This document shows, in pieces, positions 287 to 57,162 of a stretch of 64,000 bases of DNA. This DNA comes from Octopus sinensis. Its lineage: Eukaryota. The position numbers were made by a program, and so were the translations under genes. The notes under the pieces were generated by a model, which was given only the letters and a program-made list of their open reading frames with translations, made no database searches and was not told where the DNA came from. Location of the stretch: the NCBI RefSeq assembly GCF_006345805.1, contig NC_043003.1, positions 103,044,001-103,108,000 on the forward strand. The letters run 5' to 3'. Positions within the stretch are counted from its first letter, which is position 1. Every line of letters starts with the position of its first letter.

Positions 287-1348
287 CAGTAGTTTTATTT
301 TTATAGCGTGCTTTCACTTCACTACCGAGCGCAGCTCTGTGTGCCTTGGGTATGTGCTGTGATTTGTTGTGATGCTCTGATGGTTATTGTATGGAAAGTG
401 TTCTGCGTAGGATGTGTGCAGTGCCTAGTAGTGCAATTTTCTGTATGTTATATGTGTTTGTAAGTCCTGGTGTTTTTGTTATGTATTTGTCTGAATATTT
501 TTTTATCATGCCTAATGCACCTACTATGATAGGAATTGTTTCTGTTTTCAGGTTCCACATTCTAGTTACCTCTATTTCCAGGTCTTTGTATTTTGAGAGT
601 TTCTCCATTCTTTTAGAGACACGTTGTCATCTGCCGGTATTGATACATCAATTAGAAAGCATTTTTTTTCTTCATGATCTCTGACAACTATATCTGGTCT
701 GTTGGCCTTAATTTCTCTATCTGTGTGTATCGGCATATCCCAGAGTATGGTTGCTTTCTCGTTTTCTGTGACCTTTTCTGGTGTGTGCCTATACCATCTT
801 TTTTCTGTTGTTATTCCATAATGTTGGCATAGCTTCCAATGTATGTAGGTTCCAACTCTGTCATGTCTGTGAATATATTCCTTCTTAGCCAGGACTGGGC
901 AGCTAGAGATAATATGATTTATTGTTTCTTGTCCATCTCCACATATTCTGCAGTTACTTGTAATATTTCTTTTCATTACATGTTTTTGGTAATTTCTGGT
1001 GGGGAGGCTTTGGTCTTGTGCTGCAATCCCTCTGTTTCTGCTTTGAGTCCTGAGCTTCTCAACCATTGCTGGGATTTTTCTTTGTCTATTTCTTTTGCGT
1101 TTAGTTTAGTGCAGTATTTACCATGAAGGGGCTTTTCTTGCCATCGTTTTATCATGGCTCGTTGCTGTTCTATTTTTAGTTTGGATTTCATTTGTTTTAT
1201 AGCTTTTGTTGTTTCTTCATCATCTTCTTCTTCTTCTTTGTGTTTATTAGGGGGTATGATTTCTTGTTTGTATTTGTCAGCTTCCTCAAATACTGAGAAC
1301 AGTTTTTTGTTTTGCTCGTGTTTTGCTGCTATCTGGATCAGTTTTCCT

Positions 1349-1350
<2 letters not shown>
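287..1350 (-). mobile_element. 5'-truncated R4/Dong-clade LINE (CCHC zinc knuckle + RLE endonuclease + 3' UTR) inserted in a (TAA)n tract
   Basis: Frameshifted ORFs 976-1191, 572-1066 and 384-608 give WQEKPLHG, CRICGDGQETINHIISSC (CCHC), RPDIVV..CFLIDVSIP..K (PD-D/ExK) and QKIALLGTAHILRRTL. (TTA)n flanks both ends (251-286, 1351-1400). Confidence 0.9.
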
Positions 1351-1433
<83 letters not shown>

Positions 1434-1479
1434 CGTTGTCATCGTCGTCGTCGTTGTTGTTGTTATCATTATTATTCGT

Positions 1480-2990
1480 GAACCGTGTTTTCTACTCCAC
1501 ACCAACTTGCTTCTTGCGTGTATTAACGAAATATGTTACTCACGTTGCAAAAACAATTTGTCCAGTGGAGAGAAGTACTTGATGATGGTTGTCAGGACAG
1601 AGATGTGGAAAATATAGACAAAATTTTTGAGATTCGTTGAGCAACTTAAAGAATTTGTAACATTGGAGATGAATTTTTTTTTATTTCAGATGCTAGTCTT
1701 ACGTGATCGAAATTTTGTAGCCAATACTATTGTTGATTTGATGCAATCGCTATGAGACAGTGCAGAATAAAGGAAACCAGCTTGATACATGTTGGGGAAA
1801 TAGTTTCAAGAAAGTTGACCATATTGATTGTAGAGAAGAAGAAGAAAGAGCAGAGTTAAGGAAAAGAACAGGAAATGCGTTGCTAGAGTTGCACCTGAGG
1901 CTGTTCTCATATCAATAAAAAAAAATTCAAAGTAGCTACTTAGTGACCTAGGATTATTTGCATACTGAAACCAATCATTCTTTAGAAACAGGTAAGTCGG
2001 TTAACAACTTTTGAATTTTAGAGAAAGCTGAAGAGACAGCAAAAACTTTTACCGAAAATTATTCAGATTTTGTTAATTTTCTCAGACAAAATCATAATTG
2101 GAAACAGGTGAGTTTCATAAGTGAAAATAGGTAAAGGACACCATGACGTATCTCGTTGTTACTCGTCTTGAATTCAGACATTTCGAGATGTATAGATTTT
2201 TCAGATATTTATTTGAAAATAATAGCTGAAACTTGTGCAGGTGAATGAGGTTTTACCAAAGCAAGTGTTGTCAAAAATTGATTGGGTTTTAAGGATAGGT
2301 TTTAAGAGTGACAATCTTTGTCGGTCAATTTCGATGTGACTACTGACAAATTTACGGCAAAGGATGTTCACACAGAGATCAATATAAAATTAAGTATTTG
2401 CTTAATGCCGTGGCCTAAATATGTATTTACACATGTGATATGTGAACTGTAGTGTAACTATTTTGTAGTTAGACCTTTTAATAAAGTATTTTTTTGTTTG
2501 GAAAATAATATTTTTCCATAATGTAATTTTGTCATATTTTGATAAGAGTGGAGATCCATTTGTTCGGTATAGCATCCGGGCCAATGAGTACTGGTGATGG
2601 TGGTGCTGGCAGGACATAGACTAATATTTTTAAAGAATTCTCACGTAAGAACTATGCCCTAACAAGGAGAGAACCTTGTCAGATTAGCGAATAGAGGCAC
2701 TGCAAGATGTCTGCATAGATTTGAAGATTGTGATCCGATTCTGAGAAGATATGCGCAGTTTTCAGCGATATTTCCCTATTGTGAAGACAGTGGATGGTGT
2801 ACTTGAAGACTCTCTCGAGTCTAGCGTGACTTTCACCAGGGAAGGAGAACTGCTGGGAAAAGTGGATAACACAGCAGCAAAAAGATGGCAGAAGCGAGAG
2901 GCTGTGCTAGAGGCTGTGCTAGAGGAAAATCGCGGGCTTTGGGCACTCTGATTTGCGAAGGTTGTGAGTACATGCTAAATTTTTTTCGCT
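1480..2990 (+). mobile_element. Highly decayed LINE remnant, possibly L1/Tx1-like
   Basis: No intact ORF. Only faint resemblance to the RT N-terminal 'NFRPISLLN.D.K' region near 2310-2365. Confidence 0.3.
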
Positions 2991-3567: not shown

Positions 3568-3670
3568 ATTTTAGTGACATATCTTATCTACATCTCTTTT
3601 ACGAATGCAATTGATAAACATAAACACGACTGCGCATTGAGACGCGTGCATCACACCACCACCACCTTCC

Positions 3671-3671
<1 letters not shown>

Positions 3672-3709
<38 letters not shown>

Positions 3710-3710
3710 T

Positions 3711-3767
<57 letters not shown>

Positions 3768-3991
3768 AAAGCTCATTTGGAAATGTCAGAAATAATTAAA
3801 GATGTATGGCGGATGTGTTGTCATGTTTTGCTGATCCCGGATTTCCATTCTCTCTCAGTTCACCTTTCCTGCCGTTTGCAACCTCCTCACCACCTGACGC
3901 TCTTCACTCCGCACGAGTTATCATACCTGTTACTGTGACTTTATATTCTCGGCAGCAGCCAACGATAATGCAGAAATATGACATATACATG

Positions 3992-4026
<35 letters not shown>

Positions 4027-5080
4027 AACATATGTACAACTGTACGTGTATGTATGTATGTATGTATGTCTTTGCGTATGTGTATCTCTGTGTGTGTACG
4101 TGTGTAGACGTGGATGAACATACGGTGTATCTGGCGTACTTTATCTCCATCGACACTTTTGTAACGTAGCTGCTTACTTTGCAAGAAAAAGCAAAGAGCA
4201 ATATGATAGTCGCAAGATTACAATCTACAAAAGAAAAAGATTCATGATAAAAAATAAGGCATCATTGAAAAAAAATCATCAAAAATTATAAAAATACAAA
4301 TGTAAGCCGATTATTGTTGTTGTTGTTGTTGTTATTATTATTAATATTATTGTGATGAGCATCATCATCACCATCATCTATACTACTACTCTACTACTAC
4401 TATTACTACTACTACTACTACTACTACTACCACACTACTACTACTACTACTACTACAAAGCTCATTTGGAAATGTCAGAAATAATTAAAGATGTATGGCG
4501 GATGTGTTGTCATGTTTTGCTGATCCCGGATTTCCATTCTCTCTCAGTTCACCTTTCCTGCCGTTTGCAACCTCCTCACCACCTGACGCTCTTCACTCCG
4601 CACGAGTTATCATACCTGTTACTGTGACTTTATATTCTCGGCAGCAGCCAACGATAATGCAGAAATATGACATATACATGCACACACACACACACCACAC
4701 ACACACACACACTCACACAACATATGTACAACTGTACGTGTATGTATGTATGTATGTATGTCTTTGCGTATGTGTATCTCTGTGTTGTACGTGTGTAGAC
4801 GTGGATGAACATACGGTGTATCTGGCGTACTTTATCTCCATCGACACTTTTGTAACGTAGCTGCTTACTTTGCAAGAAAAAGCAAAGAGCAATATGATAG
4901 TCGCAAGATTACATCTACAAAAGAAAAAGATTCATGATAAAAAATAAGGCATCATTGAAAAAAAATCATCAAAAATTATAAAAATACAAATGTAAGCCGA
5001 TTATTGTTGTTGTTGTTGTTGTTATTATTATTAATATTATTGTGATGAGCATCATCATCACCATCATCTATACTACTACT
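3672..5080. repeat. Near-perfect tandem duplication, ~689-bp unit, bounded by (CTA)n tracts
   Basis: The ATG at 3806 recurs at 4495. In the non-repetitive parts the two copies differ only by 1-nt indels. Confidence 0.9.
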
Positions 5081-6308: not shown

Positions 6309-6629
6309 CACAAATAAGAAAATGGAGAAACAAATTCAGCTCGTTCATCAACTTAGGGATATTACAATTTTACATTATTTATTCATTATACAAATGAGAA
6401 CATCAAAAGCAAACAAAACATTATATAAATCAATAGGTAATATAGCATATTAGATAATTGATATCCCATAGTGGGTTACATTCATAACCCCTATCTTACT
6501 TTGTACTATATATATATATACATGTATGTATGGACACACACACATACATACATAGATACATACATACGTACGTACGTACGTACATACATACATACATACA
6601 TACATACATACATACATACATACATAAGA

Positions 6630-7260
6630 CCAAAGGTGCAGAAGGATAGAGCAAGGAATCCATGAATCAGGTACTCCAAATCAGTCGGAAGGAAGAAGAC
6701 GGTCCGTGTGAGCGTACAGTAAATAGTCAAATCGAATACTCGAACATTGAAAATAACAAACAAGGGAATGTGCACGTGGAATGTATGAGTTTAATACTCG
6801 GCAAAAAGGGGGAGTCTTTTGACGTTCCGAGTATAGCTCTTCATCAAAAAGGAAAACGGGAAGTGAAGAGAAGGAAAAATGTCACTAACAGCACGTGTGT
6901 AGTTATATTCATGAAGTGACCGGTAGTGGAAAGAGATAGAAGTTTTGGAGTGTACAGGAGAGTGCGATGATTGCCGGTTTGTGTGTGTGTGTGTGAGTGT
7001 AGTAATATCTGTGTGCGTGTGTTTGTGTTTATGCGAGTGATGTATGTATAAGGGTATGAGTCCACAAGCGTGTTAGTGGCTGGTATTTGATTTGGTCGAG
7101 AGAGGCGAGAGACCAGATGAAAAGTGTGTGAGTGGGTGGGTGTGTCTGTGTGTGCGTTTGAGTGTGTGTACACCCCCATAGTCCTTCGTGACCGAAGCGA
7201 GGTTTCTCCTCTCTCTCTTTACATACCCATAAAACATGAGTACCTCATAACCTCGCAGAT
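6630..7260 (-). mobile_element. 3' UTR/pLTR remnant of a Penelope-like element with a decayed HHR (6816-6850)
   Basis: Minus strand ttTGATGA-agagc tata ctc-GGAA-cg-TC-aaaag resembles the end of the PLE at 44260-45680. Confidence 0.5.
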
Positions 7261-7272
7261 TATATACATATA

Positions 7273-8625
7273 TATACAGTGTACATTTAAACACATAAGA
7301 AGCATCCATCATAGGACTCCATGCCCGCTAGAGAGAACAGTTAAATTCCATACCACTATTAGGGATAAAATTTCGAAGGGAATGAAAAATATAAACATTT
7401 ACCATCTAACTCCTGGTCCAATGGTTTCAGACTCTTTTAGCAAATAAAATAATTTGCTAGGCGAAATCTTCTTCAGCAGGTACACATTAGATTAAATATA
7501 TATACACGAAGAAATCCAGTATATGCTCCATGCGTATACATTCTAATTTTTCAAATCCATCGCGCAAGCTCAGCTCCTTATCAGCAGTAAGCAAAAATGC
7601 CGGTTTTTCAATTCGAAAATTATCCAGAAAAATATGATCAATAATTAATAATATCAAAGGGTAATCAGAAATATTAGAAATTTCCATTACCAGTGGCCTG
7701 GCGTGTAAAAAGATTTGTCAATAGACGATGTTATTCATATAAATACAGTGTACATTTAAACACATTTAAACACATCATAGAACTCCTTGCATGCTAGAGA
7801 GAACAGTTAAATTCCAAACCACTATTAGGGATAAATTATTAATTATCGATCATATTTTTCTGGATAATTTTCGAACTGAAACGCGGGCATTTTCATTTAC
7901 TGCCGATAAGAAGCTGAGCTTGCGCGGTAGATTTGAAAAATTAGAATGTATAAGCACGGGGCATATATTGGATTGCCTCGTGAATATATATTTAATCTAA
8001 GGTGTACTTGCTGAAGAAGACTTCGCCTAGCAAATTATTTTATTTGCTAAAAAAAAGTCTGAAGCCATTGGTCCAGGAGTTAGATGGTAAATGTTTTTAT
8101 TTTTCATTCCCTTCGAAATTTTATCCCTAATAGTGGTTTGGAATTTAACTGTTCTCTCTAGCGAGCAAGGAGTCCTATGATAGATGCCTTTTATGTGTTT
8201 AAATGTACACTGTATTTATACGAATAATATATAATCTATTGACTAAATTTTTTACACGCCAGGCCACTGGTAATGGAAATTTCTAATATTTCTGATTACC
8301 CTTTGATATTATCAATTATTGATCATATTTTTCTGGATAATTTTCGAATTGAAAAACCGGCATTTTTACTTACTGCCGATAAGGAGCTGAGCTTGCGGGG
8401 TAGATTTGAAAAATTAGATTGTATAAGCACGGAGCATATACTGGATTTCTTCGTGTATATATATTTAATCTAAGGTGTACCTGCTGAAGAAGACTTCGCC
8501 TAACAAATTATTTTATTTGCTAAAAGAGTCTGAAACCATTGGTCCAGGAGTTAGATGGTAAATGTTTATATTTTTCATTCCCTTCGAAATTGTATCTCTA
8601 ATAGTGGTATGGAAATTAACTGTTC
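7273..8625. repeat. Non-coding ~473-bp HHR-containing repeat: ~1.2 units on the minus strand (7273-7836) joined to ~1.7 units on the plus strand (7837-8625); retrozyme/pLTR-like
   Basis: Core CTGAAGA recurs at 8011 and 8484 (period 473). An inverted copy lies at 7412-7480. Peptide-level repeats in ORFs 7487-7687(-), 7791-8000(+) and 8273-8473(+) confirm the homology. Confidence 0.9.
8480..8548 (+). ncRNA. Type I hammerhead ribozyme, intact core, GUC cleavage site after 8544
   Basis: cctg-CTGAAGA-agact(..hairpin..)agtct-GAAA-ccattgg-TC-cagg: stem I cctg/cagg, stem II agact/agtct, stem III A-cca/tgg-T. Confidence 0.85.
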
Positions 8626-8629
8626 TGCA

Positions 8630-8975
8630 GATTAGGGACTATATAGGGTTCCTGAACTCTTTACCGCATCTAAGATTTCCTAAAACGATATGCTAGTTCG
8701 CGGCCAAGGTAGCATCAACGAACATGGCACTCTGATATTTTTGCTTGTCATACCAAGAGTTGGTCTTACCTAACTTCTTCTAGGTAGGTTCTGTGCTGTT
8801 CCGGGATTTACTCCTGAATAACGAGCAGATCTGATTTGCATAATTTTCTATGCTGGCCTTGTACATAGCCCTGGCTCCTTTGTAGGCTCTAATCTTGTCC
8901 CGTTGAGTGTAGCCAGAGAGCTGCATGAGGTGGATGAAGTGTTGAATGTGTTTTCCAATTCCGTTGGGTCGCACA
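8630..8975 (-). mobile_element. Penelope-like element fragment (RT thumb/linker region)
   Basis: HIQHFIHLMQLSGY..RAYKGARAMY..LFRSK..SWYDKQKYQSAMFVDAT resembles the 'SGY..RPLYR..WY..SVLFVP.TP' region of invertebrate PLE proteins. Confidence 0.55.
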
Positions 8976-9191
8976 TGCGAACGTGCACACACAAATATAT
9001 ATGTCAATATATATATATACATATATATATATTATTATATAATATATATATATATATAATATATATATATATTATTCTATTATATATAATATATATATAT
9101 ACATAATATATATATATATATATACATATATACAATACATATATATATATAATATAATATATATATATATATATACATACATATATATTAT

Positions 9192-10065: not shown

Positions 10066-11630
10066 CACTCCTCCTCAAATCATGTAAGCATGCCCTGGCA
10101 AAACCCCTCCAGATTCTCTTCCAGAGCTTTCTTGCAAAAATAATGAATAATATGCCCAATCCATAAAGTGGGAAGCAGAGCAGATGCCAAAAACTATAGG
10201 CCTATCTCTCTGACTTCACACATCAGCAAAGTCATGGAACGGATATTCAGAGGGAAAATAATCGCATTCCTTGAAGAAAATATCTTGCTGAGTGATACCC
10301 AGCATGGCTTTCGACCAGGTAGGAGCTGTTTGACCCAGCTCTTACAATAAATATTATGACTGGGTGTTGATGCAGTTACTCAACAAATCAAATATGGATG
10401 TAATCTACCTTGATTTTGCAAAAGTTTTGACAAGGTGGATCATGGTATATGCCACAAACTGCGTCACCTTGGCATAGCTGGAAAACTTGGAGAGTGGTTA
10501 CATGCCTTTCTGAAAGATTGAAATCATGCAATAGTGGCTAATGAAAACACAAATAGTGAGCGGTGTTCCACAAGGTACTGTCTTGGGACCACTGCTTTTT
10601 ATAGTGGCCCTCTCAGATGTGCCCTCAAGAACCCGTGTAGCCACCCTTGCAAGCTACGTAGACGATACGAAAGTGTCACATAAAATACAGAACCCCTGCG
10701 ATGTTGCACACCTGCAAGAGGAGTTGGACTCAATCTACAGATGGGCTGAGGATAATAATATGCAGTTTAATGCTGAAAAATTCCAAGCCCTATGCTACCA
10801 GTGTCCAAAACTGAATATGAAACTTACAGGGTACACTGGTCCACAGGGAATTTCAATTCCAGAGCCTAAATCAGTGAGGGAGCTGGGTATCGACATGAGT
10901 GATGATACCTCTTTCCAAGTGCACATTACCAGGATGGCGACAAAGTGCAGATGACTGGCTGGCTGGATCCTGAGAACATTCAGAACCAGAGATAAGGAAA
11001 CCATGATGGTCCTCTAGAGGACATTCGTCCTCAGCTGCCTAGATTACGGGTCACAACTATGATCACCCAATAGTGTGAAATTAACAGCGGACCTTGAAGC
11101 AATCCAGAAAAGATTCACAGAGAAGATCGTCCCTTTGCAACTGCTCAGCTACTGGAAAAGGCTGAAATAGCTAAAACTCTACTCACTGGAGAAACGGCGG
11201 GAGAGGTATGCAGTAATATACATCTGGAAGATCCTGGAAGGAATTGTGCCAAATTTTGGCATTGGAAGTTACACCAATGCTAGAACGGGACGACACTGCA
11301 TACTGCCAAAGATCCCAGCAACGCCATCGTGCTTCAGGACCAGTTACTTCAACAACCTGGGTTTCAAGGGCCCACATTTTTTTAATATTCTCCTAAAGAG
11401 CCTGAGGAACCTGCACAAAATAGATGTAGGTGTTTTAAAATCAAAGCTGGACCTCTTCCTGTCAAGAGTCCCAGATGAACCTACATCACGGCAAGATGTG
11501 CTAATGAGGGTAGCTATATCAATCTCCATGCTTCACCAAGTGCTACATATTGGAGGAGGCTCGCAGTAATAACAGTGTAGCAAAACGGCGGAGCATCAGT
11601 ATTGCCGCAGCTCTGAGCTGAAGCTACAGA
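10066..11630 (+). mobile_element. 5'-truncated CR1-clade LINE, RT domain with stops and frameshifts
   Basis: NYRPISLTSHISKVMER, QHGFRPGRSCLTQL, YLDFAK, SGVPQGTVLGPLLF, YVDDTK, WAEDNNMQFN. (TA)n on both sides. Confidence 0.9.
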
Positions 11631-21554: not shown

Positions 21555-23447
21555 CTTTATTTAAAAGCAGCAGAAATTCAACAAAACCTGTTACTCTGAG
21601 TTTCACGTTCCCGTTCGTCGGACAGTTTTTGTTAAAATAGAACCGATATGCCAATTCTATCAAGACTAGTATAAACGCTACACCTTTAAAAATGGACTTG
21701 TTTGATTGGTCCTTTCAAATAACGGTAATTTCGAGCGATAAACAAAAATGAGCTCAATATAAAATATAAAAATATATATAAAATTATAAAAGTCGAGGAA
21801 AAACCTTACATCGAATCTTTGGCTAAAATACATAGTCATTAATAAAGAAAATATAATTAATACATGGAAATTGAAATTAAAATATTAAAATGCATTAAAA
21901 TGTTTCACAACAGTACATACTCATACTAAACTATACATATATACATCAACATACACAGATAGATGTGCGTAGACCACATACATATACAGACATATAAATA
22001 CAAAACTAAAATATACACACAAATGCATGTACACATATGTATACGCAATCTAGATCTAGCTTCCATGCAAAATCACTGTATCCATATAGACTATAAGCTA
22101 AATTCATGGATGGGAAGGGGCGTTCTTATTTACAACATAAAGCTAAAGACATAGGTAAGGGAGGGGGAGGGGGGACGTAAAGTTACAGGGCTCTATACAA
22201 GTAATGAATAGGGGGAGAAAAAACGAAAGAACGGAAGAGAGAGAAAAAAGAAAAAGAGAAAAGGGAAAAAAGAAGGAAAGGAAAGAAGAAAAAATTATAA
22301 CATTCTGGCTATACGTTACGAGTTTTTGTATACTAATATGTAAGCACATATACTGACACATATATGAAGACAAGTACGCAAACACACAAGCCCAAGTGGA
22401 TACATGCATACACATACATTTGTGTATGTATGTGCTTAAGTACAAACATACGCTCACTTACACATATACAAAGACGTATGCTTACAAATACATATTCATG
22501 CCAATACACATATTCACGTAGAAATGCCTAGGATCTGACAACATTGTTTTTTTTTTTAAAAATGGTGAGTGCATAATAATAAAAATTAGACGAAAGACAT
22601 GCAAAATATAACACCCTATATCGGATTATCTATAAATTAAATTACCAAAGTGAGCCTATACAATATAATAAAATAAAATAAACTAAGTCGAAGGTTTTTC
22701 CTAAGGAATATGTAGAAATATAAACAAATTATAAACAAAATATATGCACAAGACTTTGCTATGCGGAATGAAACCTGCATAGCGCGAAACAAATCCATCG
22801 ATGTGATTTAAAGACTAGTCCAAGAATCAAAAATTCAAAAAGACAAAATATACGCTATCCATATGGGATATTTATGTTCGACATTTTAAATTTGGTTGCG
22901 TGCCTGCATGAGTTCAAAAGTTCGCTTCTTTGATTCAAAGAATTATTGTCTTTGAATAAAATGTAAAATTTTTCTAACAAACAAAGATTGCATTTAAAAG
23001 TTTTCTTGTGTGCCCCAGCCTGTATGGTCTCTCTATCTAGAAGGCTCCATGTCACGTTGAAAGGTGGGGCTTCTTTTTCTTTTAGTTCCCAGACATATTT
23101 TGCCAGGATGTTCTTCTTCCTATTTTCTGGGTATCTAAATGAATTTTTATGCGAATAAAATCGCGTTCTAAACAAATTTTCCGAAGCCCTTGTATAGGTC
23201 TTATATTCAGATGAGCCTTCTATTTGTACCTTGGCTCTATAAACGACCCCTTTTACCAAACATTTCCCTTCCAACGGACAGGAGGATTAACTTTACAATT
23301 GCATTTCTTAAGGGGATCGGCACCATGCTTAATATCAATTAAATTCCTATTGTGCTGGCTAATGTAAGAGGCGAAATTCCTGCAACAAGAATAGCTAATC
23401 TTAAGGGTTCTTCTATAAAATATTCTATAAAATTTATGGTCCTGCTT
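21555..23447 (-). mobile_element. 5'-truncated Penelope-like element: GIY-YIG endonuclease, long 3' UTR, terminal HHR; (TA)n on both sides
   Basis: ORF 22855-23274: GKCLVKGVVYRA..RTRFYSHKNSFR..LAKYVWELK..CNLCLLEK..LNQRSELLNSCRH. HHR at 21588-21625. Confidence 0.85.
21588..21625 (-). ncRNA. Minimal type I hammerhead ribozyme (U4C core variant)
   Basis: ctgt-CCGACGA-acg ggaa cgt-GAAA-ctc a gag-TA-acag. Confidence 0.75.
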
Positions 23448-23475
23448 ATATATATATATATATATATATATATCT

Positions 23476-23523
<48 letters not shown>

Positions 23524-23689
23524 ATATAATATATATATATATGGATAGATAGATAGATATATTTATATAGATAGATAGATATATTTATAGATATATTTTA
23601 ATTGTATTTAAATACTGTAAAATTGTAAAGATTGCAAATAATAAAACGTGAAAATCAGACATAAAAGTTCATTGATTAATATATATATA

Positions 23690-25129: not shown

Positions 25130-28100
25130 CACATATAAAGCTATTACAGAAGAACCTGAAACACAAAGACACCTCAGGGAGAGAATGGCACTGGAAAAAA
25201 TGAAAATGGAAATAGAACTTCTGAAATTGAGGGCCCAAACGAATGAGGATAAAATAAAATCCACCGATGAAGATATCAACGAAGAAATTCGCAAAATGAC
25301 CCAAGGCCCAGATCAGAGAAGTTCTCCAAACTATGGAAAGAGGACTGTGAAAAAGAAGAACTAAATCTCTCCAACGCTGGGAGAAAAGCGCCACTTGGTT
25401 CTCAGACTATGAAGCCGTCTTTCAAACAGAGCACGCCTCCAACAACCCTTTCCAGAAAATAAGAAAACCAAAACAACACCCAAACACCGATACACACCTG
25501 TCTAAAAATCGGAACCTTCACTACTATCAAAAAAAGAATACAGGACCTAACCCTAACTCTGTAAGCAGCCAGCGATACAATATCAGGAATACCCCACTTC
25601 AAGCAGAGAAGGATAAATCAACACCCACAGCATAGACACTGCAACCTCATCCCCACCCAAAGGAGTTACCAACGAAATCTTCGTCCCATTAACCGGTTAA
25701 ACAACCATGCACAACAAACCCACACCACTTGCAATGATTACCAACGAAGGCCTCCTAGAACACCACACCCGATATGGGATATCGGGATGCTCTCCTCAAT
25801 ACTGCTCCAAGAACACACACCATAAATCACAACAGGAGACCCCTAATCAACAAAGAACAACTATATACTAGCTACCGTCCCAACCACCGCATTCATTTTT
25901 TAGACCCAATACGCAAACACAGAGACACAAGATAGCACCAAACAAGCAGGAGGAACCAAAAGTAATAAAAATTATTAATCTAACTCACAAGGAACTAACA
26001 GCAAACCAAATAAACATACTTTCCAAAGGACTCAAGTTTACACCCACCCCACAAACACCCCAACTACAATGAAATGAAAGAAGACATCGCAGAATTCTGC
26101 AGAAAATTAAGACTTACGGAGCTGAGCTATACGATAAAACAACGAGGACGAATCGTTAGCCAGAAATAGGAGTAACTACACCCCCTCGAAAGGTAAGAAT
26201 AAAACACTTGATGATTTCTGTGACCACATATCAAATTACCCATATCAACATATGCACAAACAAAAACACAAACCAAACTTCAGCAAAAAAGAATGGGCTG
26301 AGTTGAACAAATTAAAACTAGATAAAACAATAACAATCAAAGAGGCCGATAAAGGGAGTGCTGTTGTCTTAATGGATACGACATTTTACATAACTTTGGT
26401 ACTTTCTATGCTGGAAGACACAACATACTATGAAAAGGCACAAAACTACAGTCAACAAAAATAATGAGGGAACTAAAATCCATATTAAACCCATACAAAG
26501 CAGGGCTCACCGACAAAGAATATGATTATATGACCAATTTCACAAGTAAAACTAGCCAATTCTACGGTATACCTAAGATCCACAAAAGTGAAAAAATAAG
26601 CAACGCATGCAAGATAGCTACAGACAAAATAATTAAAGTCCCTAATCCTAATGACCTCAAATTGAGACCCATAATAGCAGGTCCCGCATGAAAACCCACC
26701 GCCTCAGTAACTTTTTAGACAGCCCTGTTAAAACCACTCCTCAAACATGTCAAAAGCTATATAAGGGACGACTTAGATATGCTCAATCACCTACCGAATA
26801 CTATAAACAAAAACACCATACTGGTATCCTTCGATGTAGTCAACCTCTACTCCAATATCCCCCACAACCTAGGACTAGAGGCAATCCAATTCTGGCTAGA
26901 GAATCACGCCAACGAACTACCACACCGCATCAAAAAAGAATTTGTGATAGAAGGGGTAAATTCATCCTGGAAAATAACTTCTTCGCCTTCAATGACAACT
27001 TCTACCGACAAAAATCGGGGACTGCGATGGGTACACGAATGGCCCCCTCCTTTGCCAACCTAGTCATAGGATACCTAGAGATCAGTCTGTATCGTAAGGT
27101 TCTAGAAAGATATGGCAGCCCTTTCTCCATCTACATAGAAAACAACTGGAAGAGATATCTAGATGACTGTTTCATCCTTTGGCATAAAAATATAGAAAAA
27201 CTCATAGAATTCCAGAAAATTTTAAACGGACTGGACGTAAACATCCAATTCACGATGGAATATAGCCAACAACAACTCCCCTTCCTCGATATCCTCATTA
27301 AGAAAGCTAATAATATAATAGAAACAGACATATACTATAAGCCTACAGACTCTAAGCAATATCTTCCATTCAATTCATGCCACCCCAGACACACCAGGAT
27401 GAATATCCCCTTCAATCTAGCAAAAAGGATATGCACTATAGTCTCTAACGCAAACACCAGAGACACACGACTACAAGAACTAAAAGATACCCTAATCACC
27501 AGGAACTATCCACCTTCACTTATTGACAATGCATTCAACGTGCCCTTCAACTTAACATCAAGGAACTGAGACATCCCAAATCAAAGAAAAACTTACAACC
27601 AAAAGCCTTACCATACATCTCCACACACAACCCTCTCAATAACGAAGCCTTCGACACCATCCTCCACAACATACCCCTCCTAAAAAAAGACCACAGAATG
27701 AACACAATCCTCCAAACACACACGATCATAAAAAGCAAAAGACAGCCTAGATCCATGAAAAGTCTCCTACACAAGCCCGAATTCACTCTTCAACACAGAA
27801 GCCGACAGTAAAAAAATGTGGAAGACCCAATTGCGGGATATGCGACTATCTAATCGAGGTTCTGAGTTCTCCTTCAAACAGGGACAACGTTTTACAGTGA
27901 AAAGCAACTTCACATGTGCTTCGGAGAACCTAATATACTCACTAACCTGCTCCGGGTGTCAAGAGCAGTACATAGGCCAAACAAAAAAAAATGGTTTGCG
28001 TAAACGAATGGCCCTGCACAGATCCCAGATAAAAATTCCCCAAAACAGAAAAATAGCTTTTAGCCAACACATAGATACTTGCGCCAACAAAAAAACACCA

Positions 28101-29021
28101 AACTTCAGAATTTTCCCCCTCTACCAATTTAGGGACGATACAACCTCGAGACAACGAATAAGTAAAGAAAATCTCTTTATTACAAAATACAAGCCACTTC
28201 TTAACGGGTCTACGACAAACAATTAATATACCTCAGCTTTAGAATAAAAGAAAAAAATATATATACACACACAAATACTACACTCCATAGAATCCATTAC
28301 TAATCAGCCCCTTCATAGCTATATTTACACCCATTCATATTCTCTTCTCTGTTTTCTTTCTTCTTCTTCTTCTTCTCTTCTTCTTCACCATCATCGTTAT
28401 CATCATCATCGGCATCATCATCATCGCCACCATCATCACCACCATCTTCTTCTCCTCCTTCTTCTCTTCTTCTTCTTCTTCATCATCATCGTTATCATCA
28501 TCATCGTCGTCATAATCATCACCACCATCACCATCATCGTCATCTTCTCCTTCTCCTTCTCTTCTTCTTCTTCTTCTTCTTCTCTCCACCCCTACCCCTT
28601 AAGTTTGTCACTAATGTTTTTTAGTATAACACCTACGCTAATTCTATAAACAAGCCTGTCAATATAAATATTCTCCTGAATTGAACTGAGACTGCCAGCC
28701 GCCACTGACCATTCAAAATACGACCATCAGGGCACTCCCCGATTCTCCCACCCCCCTTTCCTCACCAGCCTTCCCTCTACTACCCTACCAAGAACTCACA
28801 ACTACCTCGAACACACAAGTGCAAACAAGGGAGTCAGAGAAAGGCAGAATGCCACTTAATCTGAACACTACATAGAAATATTCTTTTAAAAAAACTTTTC
28901 TTCTAATTTTTCTAATTTAATTATTAATCGTTACAGTTGAAAAGGTCTCAAAATGACCGAAACCGGTACTGAAATGTTCACTATAAAATTATTTTAGCAT
29001 TTTCTATTTTTTACTTGTTTT

Positions 29022-30589: not shown

Positions 30590-32960
30590 ATATAAAAATT
30601 GGAAAATATTTATATATTCTAAAGTTATAAAGGTATACATATAGACACACATGATCCCTGCTGTACCCTTTCCATGTTACAAAGACCGCACTTGCCACTA
30701 CCGTTGGTATAAGGGTTACACTTGGCTAAGCATTTCCAGTAAATACTGTAGTTGACACCTTGTTCTTTTAAGAACCATATATAACTGGATAATTTAGTAG
30801 CCTTTCGTTTATTCCAATGTCTGAAGCTTAAGGTGTAATTGTTAAATCTAGCTTTAAAATTTCCCTCTGTGAGACCCACATATTACTAGGATGAAACTGT
30901 ATTATTAGCGTTGGTAGAATTTATAGTAGCTTCATAAATAATGACCTCCAGTTAGTGGGCACAGGTCTTTATTCCTGTATGACAGTCGGCTTCGTGGTGT
31001 TGTGTTGTATTGTGTGTGATTATGCTTTTAAAATTTGGGGTAGAACTAAAACTAATTTTTAGGTTATGTCTATTAAAGTTTTCTCTATATTTGTGATGTA
31101 CTGGAAAATGTCTATCTATAAGTGACAAGAAATATTTACCTATATTAAAGGTCACTTCGTGGGAGTAAAGGGGTTTAAACCAGATAATTTTCCTGTGTCT
31201 ATGTTTCCTTTTCTTTATTTCTGGTCTAATATTAGAAGTGTAAACTATTTCCTCTGTAAATCCACTAGCTTTGAGAGCATTGTTATACTGGGGCAGCATT
31301 ATTAAATATGTTTATATTGGAGGAGAGGCTAGAAATTCTCCTAATATTATTAACTAAATTCTTAAACACTATGTGGTGGAGTGACAGAAACCTACATTAA
31401 TATAACTAAGTCTATTCTTGGGCTTTCTATAGGGTTTGTAAATATTCTCTTGCAAATCTAGAGATACGTCAAGGAAATTGACAACCGTCAGGTTGGTATC
31501 TATCGTTTTCTTAAGATCAAATGCTTTCATAAGTTGGATAATATCCTTCCTTAAACGATCTTGCGCTGATCCATTGGTATTCTTAGTTAAAGCTAGATCG
31601 CTGTTCCTATAAATAGCAAAATATACACCAGGAAAGACTTTTCCTAACGTGTCGATCAGGAATAGCCCAATGAGATCACATATGTCTGCTCCAACATATG
31701 ACCCCATGCTCACATCGAAAGAATCCTCTGTGTCTGCTGTTTTGACCCTCTCTGCCTTCTCGCTGAGGAGTAAGGTCTTTCTAGCATGGAGGATTATATC
31801 CTTATCTTGTTCACTAATCTCTGTATAATCGCCTGCAAAAGTGAGAGGTTTTTTTAGAAATAAATGCATAGCAATCTACAATATCGAATTGTGTAAATCT
31901 GGCTTTATTCTTATTTATAATTGCTTTAAACCAGGCGCAGGAGTGGCTGTGTGGTAAGTAGCTTGCTAACCAACCACATGGTTCCGGGTTCAGTCCCACT
32001 GCGTGGCATCTTGGGCAAGTGTCTTCTGCTATAGCCCCGGGCCGACCAATGCCTTGTGAGTGGATTTGGTAGACGGAAACTGAAAGAAGCCTGTCGTATA
32101 TATGTATATATATGTATGTGTGTGTGTGTTTGTGTGTCTGTGTTTGTCCCCCTAGCATTGCTTGACAACCGATGCTGGTGTGTTTACGTCCCCGTCACTT
32201 AGCGGTTCGGCAAAAGAGACCGATAGAATAAGTGCTGGGCTTACAAAGAATAAGTCCCGGGGTCGATTTGCTCGACTAAAGGCGGTGCTCCAGCATGGCC
32301 GCAGTCAAATGACTGAAACAAGTAAAAGAGTAAAAGAGTTAACAACTTCTATATTATTGGACCATTGCTGCCTCTTTAACTTTAACATTACTTATCTTTT
32401 TAAATATCTTACTAATTATACCAATTTCTGATATTGTAGGGTTAATTACTCTGCATTTACCATCAGGTAAGAAGTTATTTTTATGCTTCTTAATAGTTAC
32501 AAAGACCTCTTTTTTTTAGAAGGATTACTATTTTTATCTAATTTAAACCTAGTGGCGATGACACTAGCTTCTTTATTAATGTCCTTATAAACTTGCGGTC
32601 TAGCCTTACGTAGCAGTTGTATGTGCTGTTGTCTACAACGTATAAGTTCTTTGTTTTATTAGAAAAAAGTGCCGTTTTGGAGGAATCTTTTATGTTTTTA
32701 ACGTCTTTTTTCGGTTTCTGTTAAAAAGTGTTAAAGGACTTACGAAATTTGGTCTTGTTTATAAGCTTCAGTAGATCTGTTTTGAAGTCTTCTAAGTCCT
32801 TGATTTTGGGAGGGAATTTCTTTGATTTAATTTCATGGTATATGTTCTCCGTGATAGACTCTTCCTTGTTTTAATGGAAGGCATTCAATCTCATACGTTT
32901 GATAAGATCAGTAATTTTTTCCAATAGATTTTTAAAGTATAGTTCCTTGGATGGTGTAGG
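30590..32960 (-). mobile_element. Decayed Penelope-like element (RT + GIY-YIG), interrupted by SINE A at 31933-32338
   Basis: FTQFDIVDCY, FDVSMGSYVGADICDLIG, VVNFLDVSLDL..YKPYRKP, RKIIWFKP, GLTEGNFKARFNN..ATKLSSYIW..CGLC. Confidence 0.9.
31933..32338 (+). mobile_element. Full-length tRNA-derived SINE family A
   Basis: ggcgcaggagtggctgtgtggtaag (A box), gggttcagtccc (B box), internal (TG)n, tail gtaaaagagtaaaagag. It splits the PLE reading EVVN|WFKAI. Confidence 0.9.
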
Positions 32961-35100: not shown

Positions 35101-35315
35101 GCAACAACAACAACAACAACAACAATAATAACACCGAAAAATACCTTAGGAATGAGAACCCAGGTTCGAAATTTCCCCAAGACACCTGATGAAGGCTGGA
35201 GGGTATATCAGCCGAAACGTTGTGTTAAGAACAAACAAGATGAGGACAAATATACGTCAAATGTAAATAATGCAAATAATGTACATAATTCCTCATCTCT
35301 TAAATATAGAACTGT
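34972..35315 (+). mobile_element. SINE-like element: tRNA-like head + (AAT)n + hammerhead-containing tail
   Basis: Head 34972-35043 with A box tggtgtagtgg and B box gagttcgattcc. (AAT/AAC)n at 35046-35131. HHR at 35182-35225. Confidence 0.8.
35182..35225 (+). ncRNA. Minimal type I hammerhead ribozyme, intact core, GUU site
   Basis: acac-CTGATGA-a-ggctg(gagggtatat)cagcc-GAAA-cg-TT-gtgt. Confidence 0.85.
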
Positions 35316-40546: not shown

Positions 40547-41781
40547 TTAGAAATAATATATTTCTAAATCTCTCAGAGAGATTTATACAGTAGCAGCACG
40601 ATGAAGTGATAGCATGTTGTCAACTTAATATGACAGTCACACAAACATGAAGTGTCCCCAGAAACAAGAGGTGGAACAGGAGGTAGAACGGGAGCAGCAG
40701 GAGGAGAAGGTAGAGCAAGGTATGGTGGGGAAAGGCCAGGTAAAGGAAATAATGCAAGCAGTAGAAGCGAAAGACCCAGTCGGAAAGAGAAAGAAAAGAA
40801 GGCGGAAAATACATTATCGCCTCCAAAAAGCCCGCAGAAAAAGAGAAAAGGTAATTTGGAGGAGATGCAGATAGATGGCACAGAAATAACAAAAAAGAAA
40901 ATTGCAGAAGAGAGAAAAAAATGAAAACGAAAATATGCAGAAAGGAGCAGCGAGGAGCGGCAGTAAGATGGACACCCAAGTACCAGGAACATGGGGAGAG
41001 AGTGGAGATGAAAAGTGGGAAGAAGTGGCGAAAAGAAGAAATGTGAGGAGGATGGTGGAATACAAGAAGAGTATAGAGATAGAGAGGAGGATTACTAAGA
41101 TGAAAATGTTACAAGAGTTAAGATAACGGGAAGTGAATATACATAGGATGACAGAGCGGTTTTGCTGGAGAGTGACAGAGCGGATAAATTGGAAAAGCTG
41201 TTTGGTGAGCGGATTGAATTGACAAACCTGTGGTTTCGATGTGACGATCTGCCACCAGTGGTGCCATCTGAAGGCATTGTGCAATACTTTGTAGATGAAT
41301 ATAATAGTAAGTAAAACTGCAAAATTTAAATGTGCTTAAAAACAAAAAGAACCATAAACTGTTACACGAACATGAATTGCATAAACAGTTAAATGACACG
41401 GTTTGCGTATGGGGTGCAAACAAAACATTTCATTTTTCTCATTATATCACTATATTCATATTCATTCGATTTTCGTTTTATGTACCCCACTGTATAGTGT
41501 TGTCTGTCTTTGTTCGTCCCTTCTTTCTAAGAGCTTTATGCTTATAATAAAGAAAAAGCTAGCAAGCCATGTTACTCCAGACTGATGATGAGCAATGACT
41601 CCGAAACTAGTCTCTGGGCGCGGGTTTTGCTGGGTGGAGGTGATTGTCTCCCCTTTGAAAACATAAGGACACAGGAAATATGTCAAGTCCAACAGGAAAC
41701 GGTGTTTCTTAGGGCTAAATAACAGTAGCATTCTTCCCTTTTATGGGGCTGTCACATTAAGTTGACAACATGCTATCACTT
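40547..41781 (+). mobile_element. Non-autonomous HHR-bearing element with a 12-bp TSD and 33-bp inverted repeats (PLE-derived?)
   Basis: taataagttagg at 40535-40546 and 41782-41793. Inverted repeat 40604-40636 / 41749-41781 with 1 mismatch. HHR at 41577-41617. Confidence 0.8.
41577..41617 (+). ncRNA. Minimal type I hammerhead ribozyme, intact core, GUC site
   Basis: ccaga-CTGATGA-t gag caatga ctc c-GAAA-ctag-TC-tctgg. Confidence 0.85.
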
Positions 41782-44120: not shown

Positions 44121-44259
44121 AGTTGAAACGCTGTTTGATTTATTCTTTCAGCGTACAATTTTCACCAACTTTGACATCACCCCTTCCTTCCTTATTCATA
44201 AATTTAAAAGTATTATTATAGTAGAAAAAATGCAAAACCCAGCAACAGCAGCGGATCAT

Positions 44260-45882
<1,623 letters not shown>

Positions 45883-56856: not shown

Positions 56857-57162
56857 TAAATGAAAGAATGTAGTTGAATGACGATTTAACAAAATTCCTT
56901 ATTCTCGACATATGTTTCGAAGACTGCATATTCCTAATTTCGAAGGAATAAGGGGTGTATTATGCCGCCTTCTCATCAGGAAAGACAAGGAAATTATGTC
57001 AGCATCATGATGAACAAAAACTTTTAGATTACTGCCCACACGGAGTTATTATCGCTATGGACTCCGTGTGGAATTAGGAATTAGGAATATGCAGCCTTCG
57101 AAACATATGTCGAGAATAAAGGAATTTTGTTAAATCGTCGTTCAACTCCATTCTTTCATTTA
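56857..57162. mobile_element. Inverted pLTR-like structure with an HHR on the minus strand (56903-56983)
   Basis: ~85-bp inverted arms 56857-56940 / 57077-57162. Minus strand tttc-CTGATGA-gaaggcggcata..tatgcagtcttc-GAAA-catatg-TC-gaga. Confidence 0.8.

Follow-up and report, generated by a model that had tools for sequence, protein, structure and literature searches.

A decayed insertion of a high-copy hammerhead repeat with a Penelope-like integration footprint in octopus DNA

What kind of element leaves a non-coding tandem repeat with a hammerhead ribozyme in its units and an inverted block fused to it, how was it inserted, and could the locus be a source of circular RNA? The window, i.e. 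the whole stretch of 64,000 nt that was analysed, holds such a locus, which reads as a decayed insertion of a high-copy non-coding hammerhead repeat. The insert is 1.4 kb long and non-coding, with about three copies of a 471-nt unit, 1.7 units on the plus strand and 1.2 on the minus strand. Newly found are an 8-bp target-site duplication, junction contigs, a high-copy family and a readable integration footprint. An earlier note had described a 473-nt tandem repeat at 7273-8625 fused to an inverted block of 1.2 units. Self-alignment bears out this layout, while the unit measures 471 nt from cut to cut and the insert covers 7257/7263-8626 and is flanked by an 8-bp direct repeat that had been overlooked.

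The insertion and its units

The insert and its two borders have the following parts:
7255..7262, plus strand: left copy of the 8-bp target-site duplication, GCAGATTA, of which the final 6 nt also fit the unit
7257..7333, minus strand: segment D, the first 60-83 nt of a further unit, with a TA-rich run at its end
7334..7800, minus strand: unit A, full length, 467 nt, of the same variant as unit C
7800..7835, minus strand: segment E, the last 36 nt of a B-type unit, with the head-to-head inversion joint at about 7835
7835..8155, plus strand: unit B, 5'-truncated, 321 nt, nearest to the family-majority letters
8156..8626, plus strand: unit C, full length, 471 nt, 32% GC
8627..8634, plus strand: right copy of the duplication, an 8-bp direct repeat; junction spanned by contigs of X17 and X18

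The plus side consists of one full unit (C) and one 5'-truncated unit (B), and the direct repeat (7835-8155 against 8308-8626) aligns at 91.6% over 321 nt; the inverted block (7334-7835 against 8120-8626) aligns at 92.9% over 507 nt. The monomer from cut to cut, 8074-8544, is 471 nt with a range of 466-473 per copy. The figure of 473 gives the offset as measured upstream of a 2-nt insertion that unit B carries, and the unit period on the minus strand is 466-469. The array is absent from the Tandem Repeats Finder output. The longest stop-free frame of the unit has 76 codons, the unit contains no tRNA, and no ORF with RT plus GIY-YIG lies inside 7257-8626.

The target-site duplication is longer than 4 bp, as in non-LTR retrozymes. 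An 8-mer shared with the left flank was found in 3 of 8907 random 18-nt segments of the window, and a wide search of 100 by 110 flanking positions gave one other shared 8-mer. The right junction (8562/8563-8950) is crossed by one contig of each DNA-like sequencing run, with 3 and 0 differences over about 390 nt.

Hammerhead motifs and the repeat family

The hammerheads of the three units are:
7412..7480, minus strand: type I hammerhead of A, with GAC for GUC at 7418-7416, private to A
8007..8077, plus strand: type I hammerhead of B, with GAAG for GAAA at 8061-8064; GUC intact, predicted cut after 8073
8457..8570, plus strand: type I hammerhead of C, core intact, predicted cut after 8544

All three units that cover the site carry the motif, one of them with an intact core. 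The descriptor scan places the core of C at 8484-8490 (CUGAAGA), 8532-8535 (GAAA) and 8542-8544 (GUC), and the strict descriptor matched none of 300 two-base block shuffles of 7273-8625. The scan and the fold thus recover what had been read from the letters, namely a type I hammerhead in each unit, a canonical core in C and a long stem II with an inner hairpin, and the scan confirms both broken cores as the earlier note gave them. In the fold of C, stem I is long and bulged, and stem II, at 41 nt and with an inner 8-bp hairpin (8501-8508/8515-8522), differs from the stem II of about 4 bp described for canonical metazoan hammerheads (PMC4209133). Stem III, of 3 bp with a 3-nt loop, is near-palindromic and absent from the minimum-energy fold, and the stability of 8455-8575 is about that of shuffled sequences (z -0.86, 40/200). 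Two copies of stem III form a self-duplex with 8 of 9 pairs, and dimer pairing through stem III is the arrangement described for metazoan hammerheads in PMC4209133. Rfam gave no match at the gathering score in the whole 64,000-nt window, and no hammerhead family is among its six chance-level matches up to E 10 in 6600-9000. The family-majority letter at 8503 repairs the sole broken pair of the inner hairpin of C, and the core is unchanged among the 40 family variants listed (153 further ones are on record).

The long stem II is not unique in the window, since a second type I hammerhead of this form, with a palindromic minimal stem III and a sequence unrelated to the 471-nt unit, lies at 56979-56907 on the minus strand, in a 73% inverted repeat (56857-57162) beside an N gap. 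Minimal Penelope-type core motifs, some of them degenerate, were also observed at 35186-35221 and 41582-41609 on the plus strand, and by eye at about 6810-6850 (minus) and about 58060 (plus). Four other regions of the window with a hammerhead or a Penelope end are not truly similar to the unit, the best E value being 0.007 in a TA run.

The family was studied in contigs of four sequencing runs, out of 24 listed, aligned to 8156-8950. Two of the runs are DNA-like (kind unrecorded) and come from one study under two organism codes; the window may itself derive from one of these two. The other two runs are RNA-like by guess. The DNA-like runs gave 2347 and 3494 aligned contigs. Since the summed depth over the unit far exceeds that of a locus-specific bin (77-10,084x over seven unit bins, and about 2,000-2,900x over the hammerhead, as depth and not copy number), the unit must occur in many copies. 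In 22 and 26 contigs of the DNA-like runs, the sequence in the loose end before 8157 is the end of the unit itself, which marks head-to-tail joints. Four contigs continue from around 8202-8227 to the unit middle or the hammerhead with no ORF between, and the fraction of aligned DNA contigs that run into unlike sequence is 0.02. Several long contigs have 14-22 gap letters mid-unit, and therefore shorter subfamilies of about 455 nt exist. Behind 8220 the loose ends are TA-rich in 17 and 28 contigs and resemble the end of segment D.

One open frame was considered as a gene:
8273..8473, plus strand: 66-codon open frame with no homologue, treated as chance

We rejected it as it has no homologue among proteins of 36-116 aa, constraint having been judged by inspection. 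The view of a non-coding, multi-copy hammerhead repeat arranged head to tail therefore stands, given thousands of related contigs, the joints at unit ends and the absence of an ORF or homologue. By sequence criteria the family is a high-copy non-coding non-LTR retrozyme. Pattern scans gave no match in metagenome contigs and none in viral contigs; one locus, L001, matched over 24 nt only and was taken as chance. Depth peaks at 8183-8236 and 8561-8587, at about 8,000-10,000x the locus bin, mark the segments that are commonest across subfamilies. The two 3' ends follow shortly downstream of these segments, which may serve the enzyme as recognition sites.

Each unit also contains a 75-nt segment that looks like an intron:
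7328..7402, minus strand: intron-like segment, 75 nt, with the same motif order as the plus copy
8087..8161, plus strand: intron-like segment with ATG, GT donor, branch-like hexamer, pyrimidine tract and TAG

The segment starts 14 nt past the cut site in each unit and overlaps the outer extension of stem I. The pattern, which was fixed after the sequence had been seen, occurs by chance in 39 of 2000 shuffles, or in 5 of 2000 with the ATG. No spliced joint 8557-8162 is among the joints listed (15 of 44), and the listed RNA-like pieces across the donor (5 of 16) are all unspliced. Introns adjoining helix I are known in pLTRs (PMC4209133).

How the insertion was probably made

The 3' ends of both blocks point outward and the blocks meet head to head at about 7835. 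Unit C ends 82 nt past its own cut site, 6 nt before the intron-like acceptor, and segment D, the 3' end of the inverted block, ends 138-159 nt past the cut site of A, a stagger of 56-77 nt. At these distances, neither block starts at a cleaved end. Over 319 sites A and C differ at 16, B and C at 25 and A and B at 27, and the 36 nt of segment E have no difference to B, one to A and four to C. The list of majority sites is limited to those at which C departs; of its 14 sites that A, B and C all cover, seven have the majority letter in B only, five a departure in C only, and two a departure in all three. Both blocks read B-type and then A/C-type, with one site on the E side. As the order of variants through A, E, B and C is the same in both blocks, the simplest reading is a mixed multimer copied twice. 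On balance we think that the template was probably one uncleaved RNA of mixed units, at least about 870 nt long and with two ribozymes left uncut; from a monomeric circle, identical units would be expected. A twin-priming inversion of the L1 type splits one RNA into two abutting stretches, one found in the inverted part and the other in the direct part. We dropped this mechanism as both blocks here cover the same B-type tail plus A/C-type unit.

We consider it likely that the locus is one decayed non-LTR retrozyme insertion, probably derived from a Penelope pLTR, that was moved in trans by a Penelope-like RT-endonuclease. A tandem source array would have been transcribed as a multimer, and the presumed enzyme would have nicked both strands 8 bp apart, which is the length of the duplication that we observe. 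With both target ends as primers, reverse transcription would have begun within an RNA that was neither cut nor spliced, at points 82 and about 140-160 nt beyond the cut site, and the two 5'-truncated cDNAs would then have joined in the head-to-head layout that is seen. Later point mutations presumably inactivated at least the ribozyme of A, which would have been lost after the insertion since A and C are sister copies and the GAC is in A only. In intact arrays, by analogy, dimers formed through the palindromic stem III are most likely the form in which the ribozyme cleaves best, and monomers of 455-471 nt could be released and then circularised by a host ligase.

The Penelope-type integration that the earlier note had proposed is matched by the head-to-head inverted, 5'-truncated block and the 8-bp duplication. 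In the known Penelope layout, a truncated inverted copy adjoins two direct repeats and there is a duplication of 8-10 bp (PMC3846280; PMC8557442), as described for Adineta Pen2a/Pen3a (PMC3846280), and the 8 bp found here fall into this class. The octopus insert further resembles Penelope-like elements in its unequal 3' ends downstream of the hammerhead, and its intron-like segment may correspond to their intron touching helix I (PMC3846280, PMC11167929, PMC4209133). The Penelope enzyme of Anolis (PAc) is reported to extend both strands and to use unprocessed RNA (PMC11167929), and its RT start at +111-118 with a ribozyme cut at +26 in the same report gives 85-92 nt past the cut by subtraction. 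Unlike Penelope-like elements, the octopus insert has no RT-GIY-YIG ORF, and its hammerhead has a formed stem III and a long stem I in place of the minimal type. The intron-like segment is 3' of helix I, whereas it is 5' in the D. virilis Penelope as described in PMC4209133. The insertion appears to work like that of Penelope, but the locus is not an autonomous Penelope-like element, as the RT-GIY-YIG ORF is absent.

The idea that animal retrozymes originate from Penelope was suggested in 2020 (PMC7229834) and argued for vertebrates by Li, Clavereau and Pollet 2026 (bioRxiv 10.64898/2026.07.22.740005). The octopus unit shares with the metazoan non-LTR retrozymes of PMC7229834 an AT-rich, non-coding tandem unit with one type I hammerhead each, a thousands-fold depth, a duplication above 4 bp and a short stem III that suits dimers. 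The units reported there are 220-245 nt in coral, 350-390 nt in mussel and 330/350 nt in axolotl, and the 471-nt unit is 21 nt above the range of 150-450 bp given in that paper. It also differs from the retrozymes described there by an intron-like segment and an inverted Penelope footprint. The same origin is proposed for the vertebrate retrozymes, whose range of 51-972 bp includes the octopus unit (Li 2026). The case made for them rests, in the text of that preprint, on co-occurrence and pLTR homology in Xenopus, and ours on the insertion footprint; no partner pLTR was found for the octopus unit. The same preprint calls a retrozyme active if two consecutive units have complete hammerheads, and this locus, though not the family, falls outside that definition, as B has GAAG and A has GAC.

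Some features speak against the preferred reading of a retrozyme moved by a Penelope-like enzyme. The stagger of 56-77 nt is larger than the optional 3'-end tail of Penelope, which is 30-40 nt, and the circular folds given below are weak. The left duplication shares 6 nt with unit-like sequence, and homology to Penelope proteins across the empty site is plausible by eye and not significant on the left flank, so that the empty site is a candidate one.

The likeness of A and C could also result from later gene conversion between the inverted arms, with which the total changes per copy fit as well. This would be needed if a single monomeric circle had been reverse transcribed by rolling circle, as in the published model of Cervera and de la Pena 2020 (PMC7229834), so that the units were identical at first and A and C were homogenised afterwards. 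The inverted arms are 93-95% complementary, and the departures from the common ancestor are similar among the copies (about 17 in A, 15 in C and 12 in B, shared changes counted), both of which suit this model. The A-C differences are also denser in the first 153 nt (14/148) than in the rest (16/319), but this excess lies largely within two indel clusters. The conversion tract would have to be at least 320 nt, and it would have to coexist with the same order in both blocks, B-type before A/C-type (one site on the E side), and with sequence in each block that is absent from the other. We therefore regard the copying of a monomeric circle as unlikely here.

Another possibility is that there is no independent non-coding element and that the unit is simply a pLTR, belonging to an autonomous Penelope element and multiplied through partial-tandem insertion. 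The hammerhead, the ATG, the intron-like segment and the staggered 3' ends all fit the anatomy of a pLTR, the depth along the unit varies about 100-fold, and a Penelope remnant adjoins the insert:
8708..8989, minus strand: older decayed Penelope-like remnant of RT thumb and linker, outside the unit, 37-48% to P0002, P0006 and P0009

P0006 has weak RT and GIY-YIG matches and P0009 a GIY-YIG match; the HMMER search with the flank fragment gave 14 matches, and P0001, P0003, P0004 and P0007 were set aside as repeat-rich look-alikes. However, this remnant is outside the duplication and on the opposite strand. There is no ORF between the units at the locus, the unit junctions are fixed in many contigs, very few of the aligned DNA contigs (0.02) continue into unlike sequence, and the trough in depth falls at the position of the 14-22-nt gaps of the shorter subfamilies. 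These points make the pLTR-only explanation quite improbable in our view. A rarer coding partner may exist; 627 loose ends and 29 joints are on record beyond those listed.

That a satellite-like repeat spread at the DNA level, with the inversion due to repair or template switching and the hammerhead a relic, is very improbable, although two of the three cores are broken and eight of nine Xenopus retrozyme dimers showed no cleavage in vitro in the preprint of 2026 (bioRxiv 10.64898/2026.07.22.740005), since the insert as a whole lies between the two duplication copies, each block lacks its 5' part and has its 3' end outward, the family majority keeps the core and a sister family compensates the inner hairpin.

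RNA-like signal, meaning and neighbouring repeats

The suggestion that the locus is a source of circular RNA is not supported. The locus is probably a poor source, since one of three cores is intact and a read-through transcript is predicted to pair the intact hammerhead of C with the antisense copy in A; the transcript over 7255-8634 folds as one long hairpin of -836 kcal/mol. In a transcript begun inside B, the core of C could at best be usable on both sites. The circular monomers are weakly more stable than shuffled ones (z -2.0, -0.3 and -1.2 for three monomers, and -1.9 for the antisense), with about 61% of positions paired and 1, 14 and 5 of 40 shuffles folding as well.

The two RNA-like runs, X1 and X8, are only guessed to be RNA and may contain DNA. 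They gave 38 and 32 aligned contigs, which by their nature show neither strand, ends nor circles. At 8472, where the RNA-like signal is deepest (216 and 336), it stems from a relative whose alignment is confined to about 8452-8493, and an identical loose end is found behind 8493 in both runs. In the sister family the inner helix is TAGCGAGT/ACTCGCTA, compared with TAGCAAAT/ATTTGCTA in A and B, so that two A-U pairs have become G-C pairs. These compensatory changes, at two pairs and in one contig per run, support the branched stem II as a structure that may have been kept. Four more RNA-like runs of the same label have next to no unit words and carry no weight either way, nor do those stretches of the flank that are uncovered in the RNA-like runs. 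Other hammerhead families with a long stem II appear as loose ends at 8452-8493, 8540 and 8551, and one of them dominates X1 and X8.

A wider conjecture, which we hold to be rather doubtful as a whole, is that animal retrozymes are mobilised in the Penelope-like way from uncut, unspliced multimers with circles as a by-product, that a working intron overlapping helix I competes with self-cleavage (giving a 471-nt or a 396-nt RNA, possibly both circular), and that a branched hammerhead with a long stem II is kept by compensatory change across abundantly transcribed families.

The earlier note knew of no description of such a family. Our literature search likewise found no cephalopod retrozyme and no such footprint in a retrozyme; it ran outside Repbase, Dfam and most subscription papers. 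The class of element and its link to Penelope, on the other hand, are already published. The word octopus is absent from the main text of PMC4209133, PMC5680766 and PMC7936874, and no mollusc is named among the 35 genomes in the text consulted of Li 2026 (bioRxiv 10.64898/2026.07.22.740005). The supplement of PMC7229834 may list further molluscs, and a repeat catalogue may already have an unclassified entry for this family.

According to the 2020 model of how non-LTR retrozymes move, tandem cDNA is made from a circle (PMC7229834), while the purified Penelope enzyme works on unprocessed RNA with an internal start (PMC11167929). Since this family has thousands of copies with footprints that can be read, the position of 3' ends against the cut site could be compared across the genome, and young insertions could be checked for identical or mixed units. 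If the host is a cephalopod, retrozymes extend to a further animal group, and a hammerhead form missed by Rfam is added. This copy itself is decayed; what makes it useful is the readable footprint, together with the branched stem II and a possibly transcribed sister family.

Several other repeats were seen in the window. At 8694-8860 each of the two RNA-like runs has a contig of which two short stretches match the Penelope remnant, while the sequence that separates and surrounds them is unlike it. The plus strand at 26138-28226 encodes a Penelope-like element that is frameshifted and gives weak Pfam matches to RT and GIY-YIG, and Penelope-like fragments were recognised by eye near 22855-23597, 30952-31875 and 44225-44800. 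Fragments of non-LTR retrotransposons are located at 384-1491 (minus) and 10535-11569 (plus); the former has many marine-invertebrate relatives, and the named relatives of a neighbouring retroelement protein, at 53-60%, belong to other marine invertebrates. A sequence of about 600 nt occurs twice in tandem at 3624-4261 and 4292-4908, as seen from its repeated translations.
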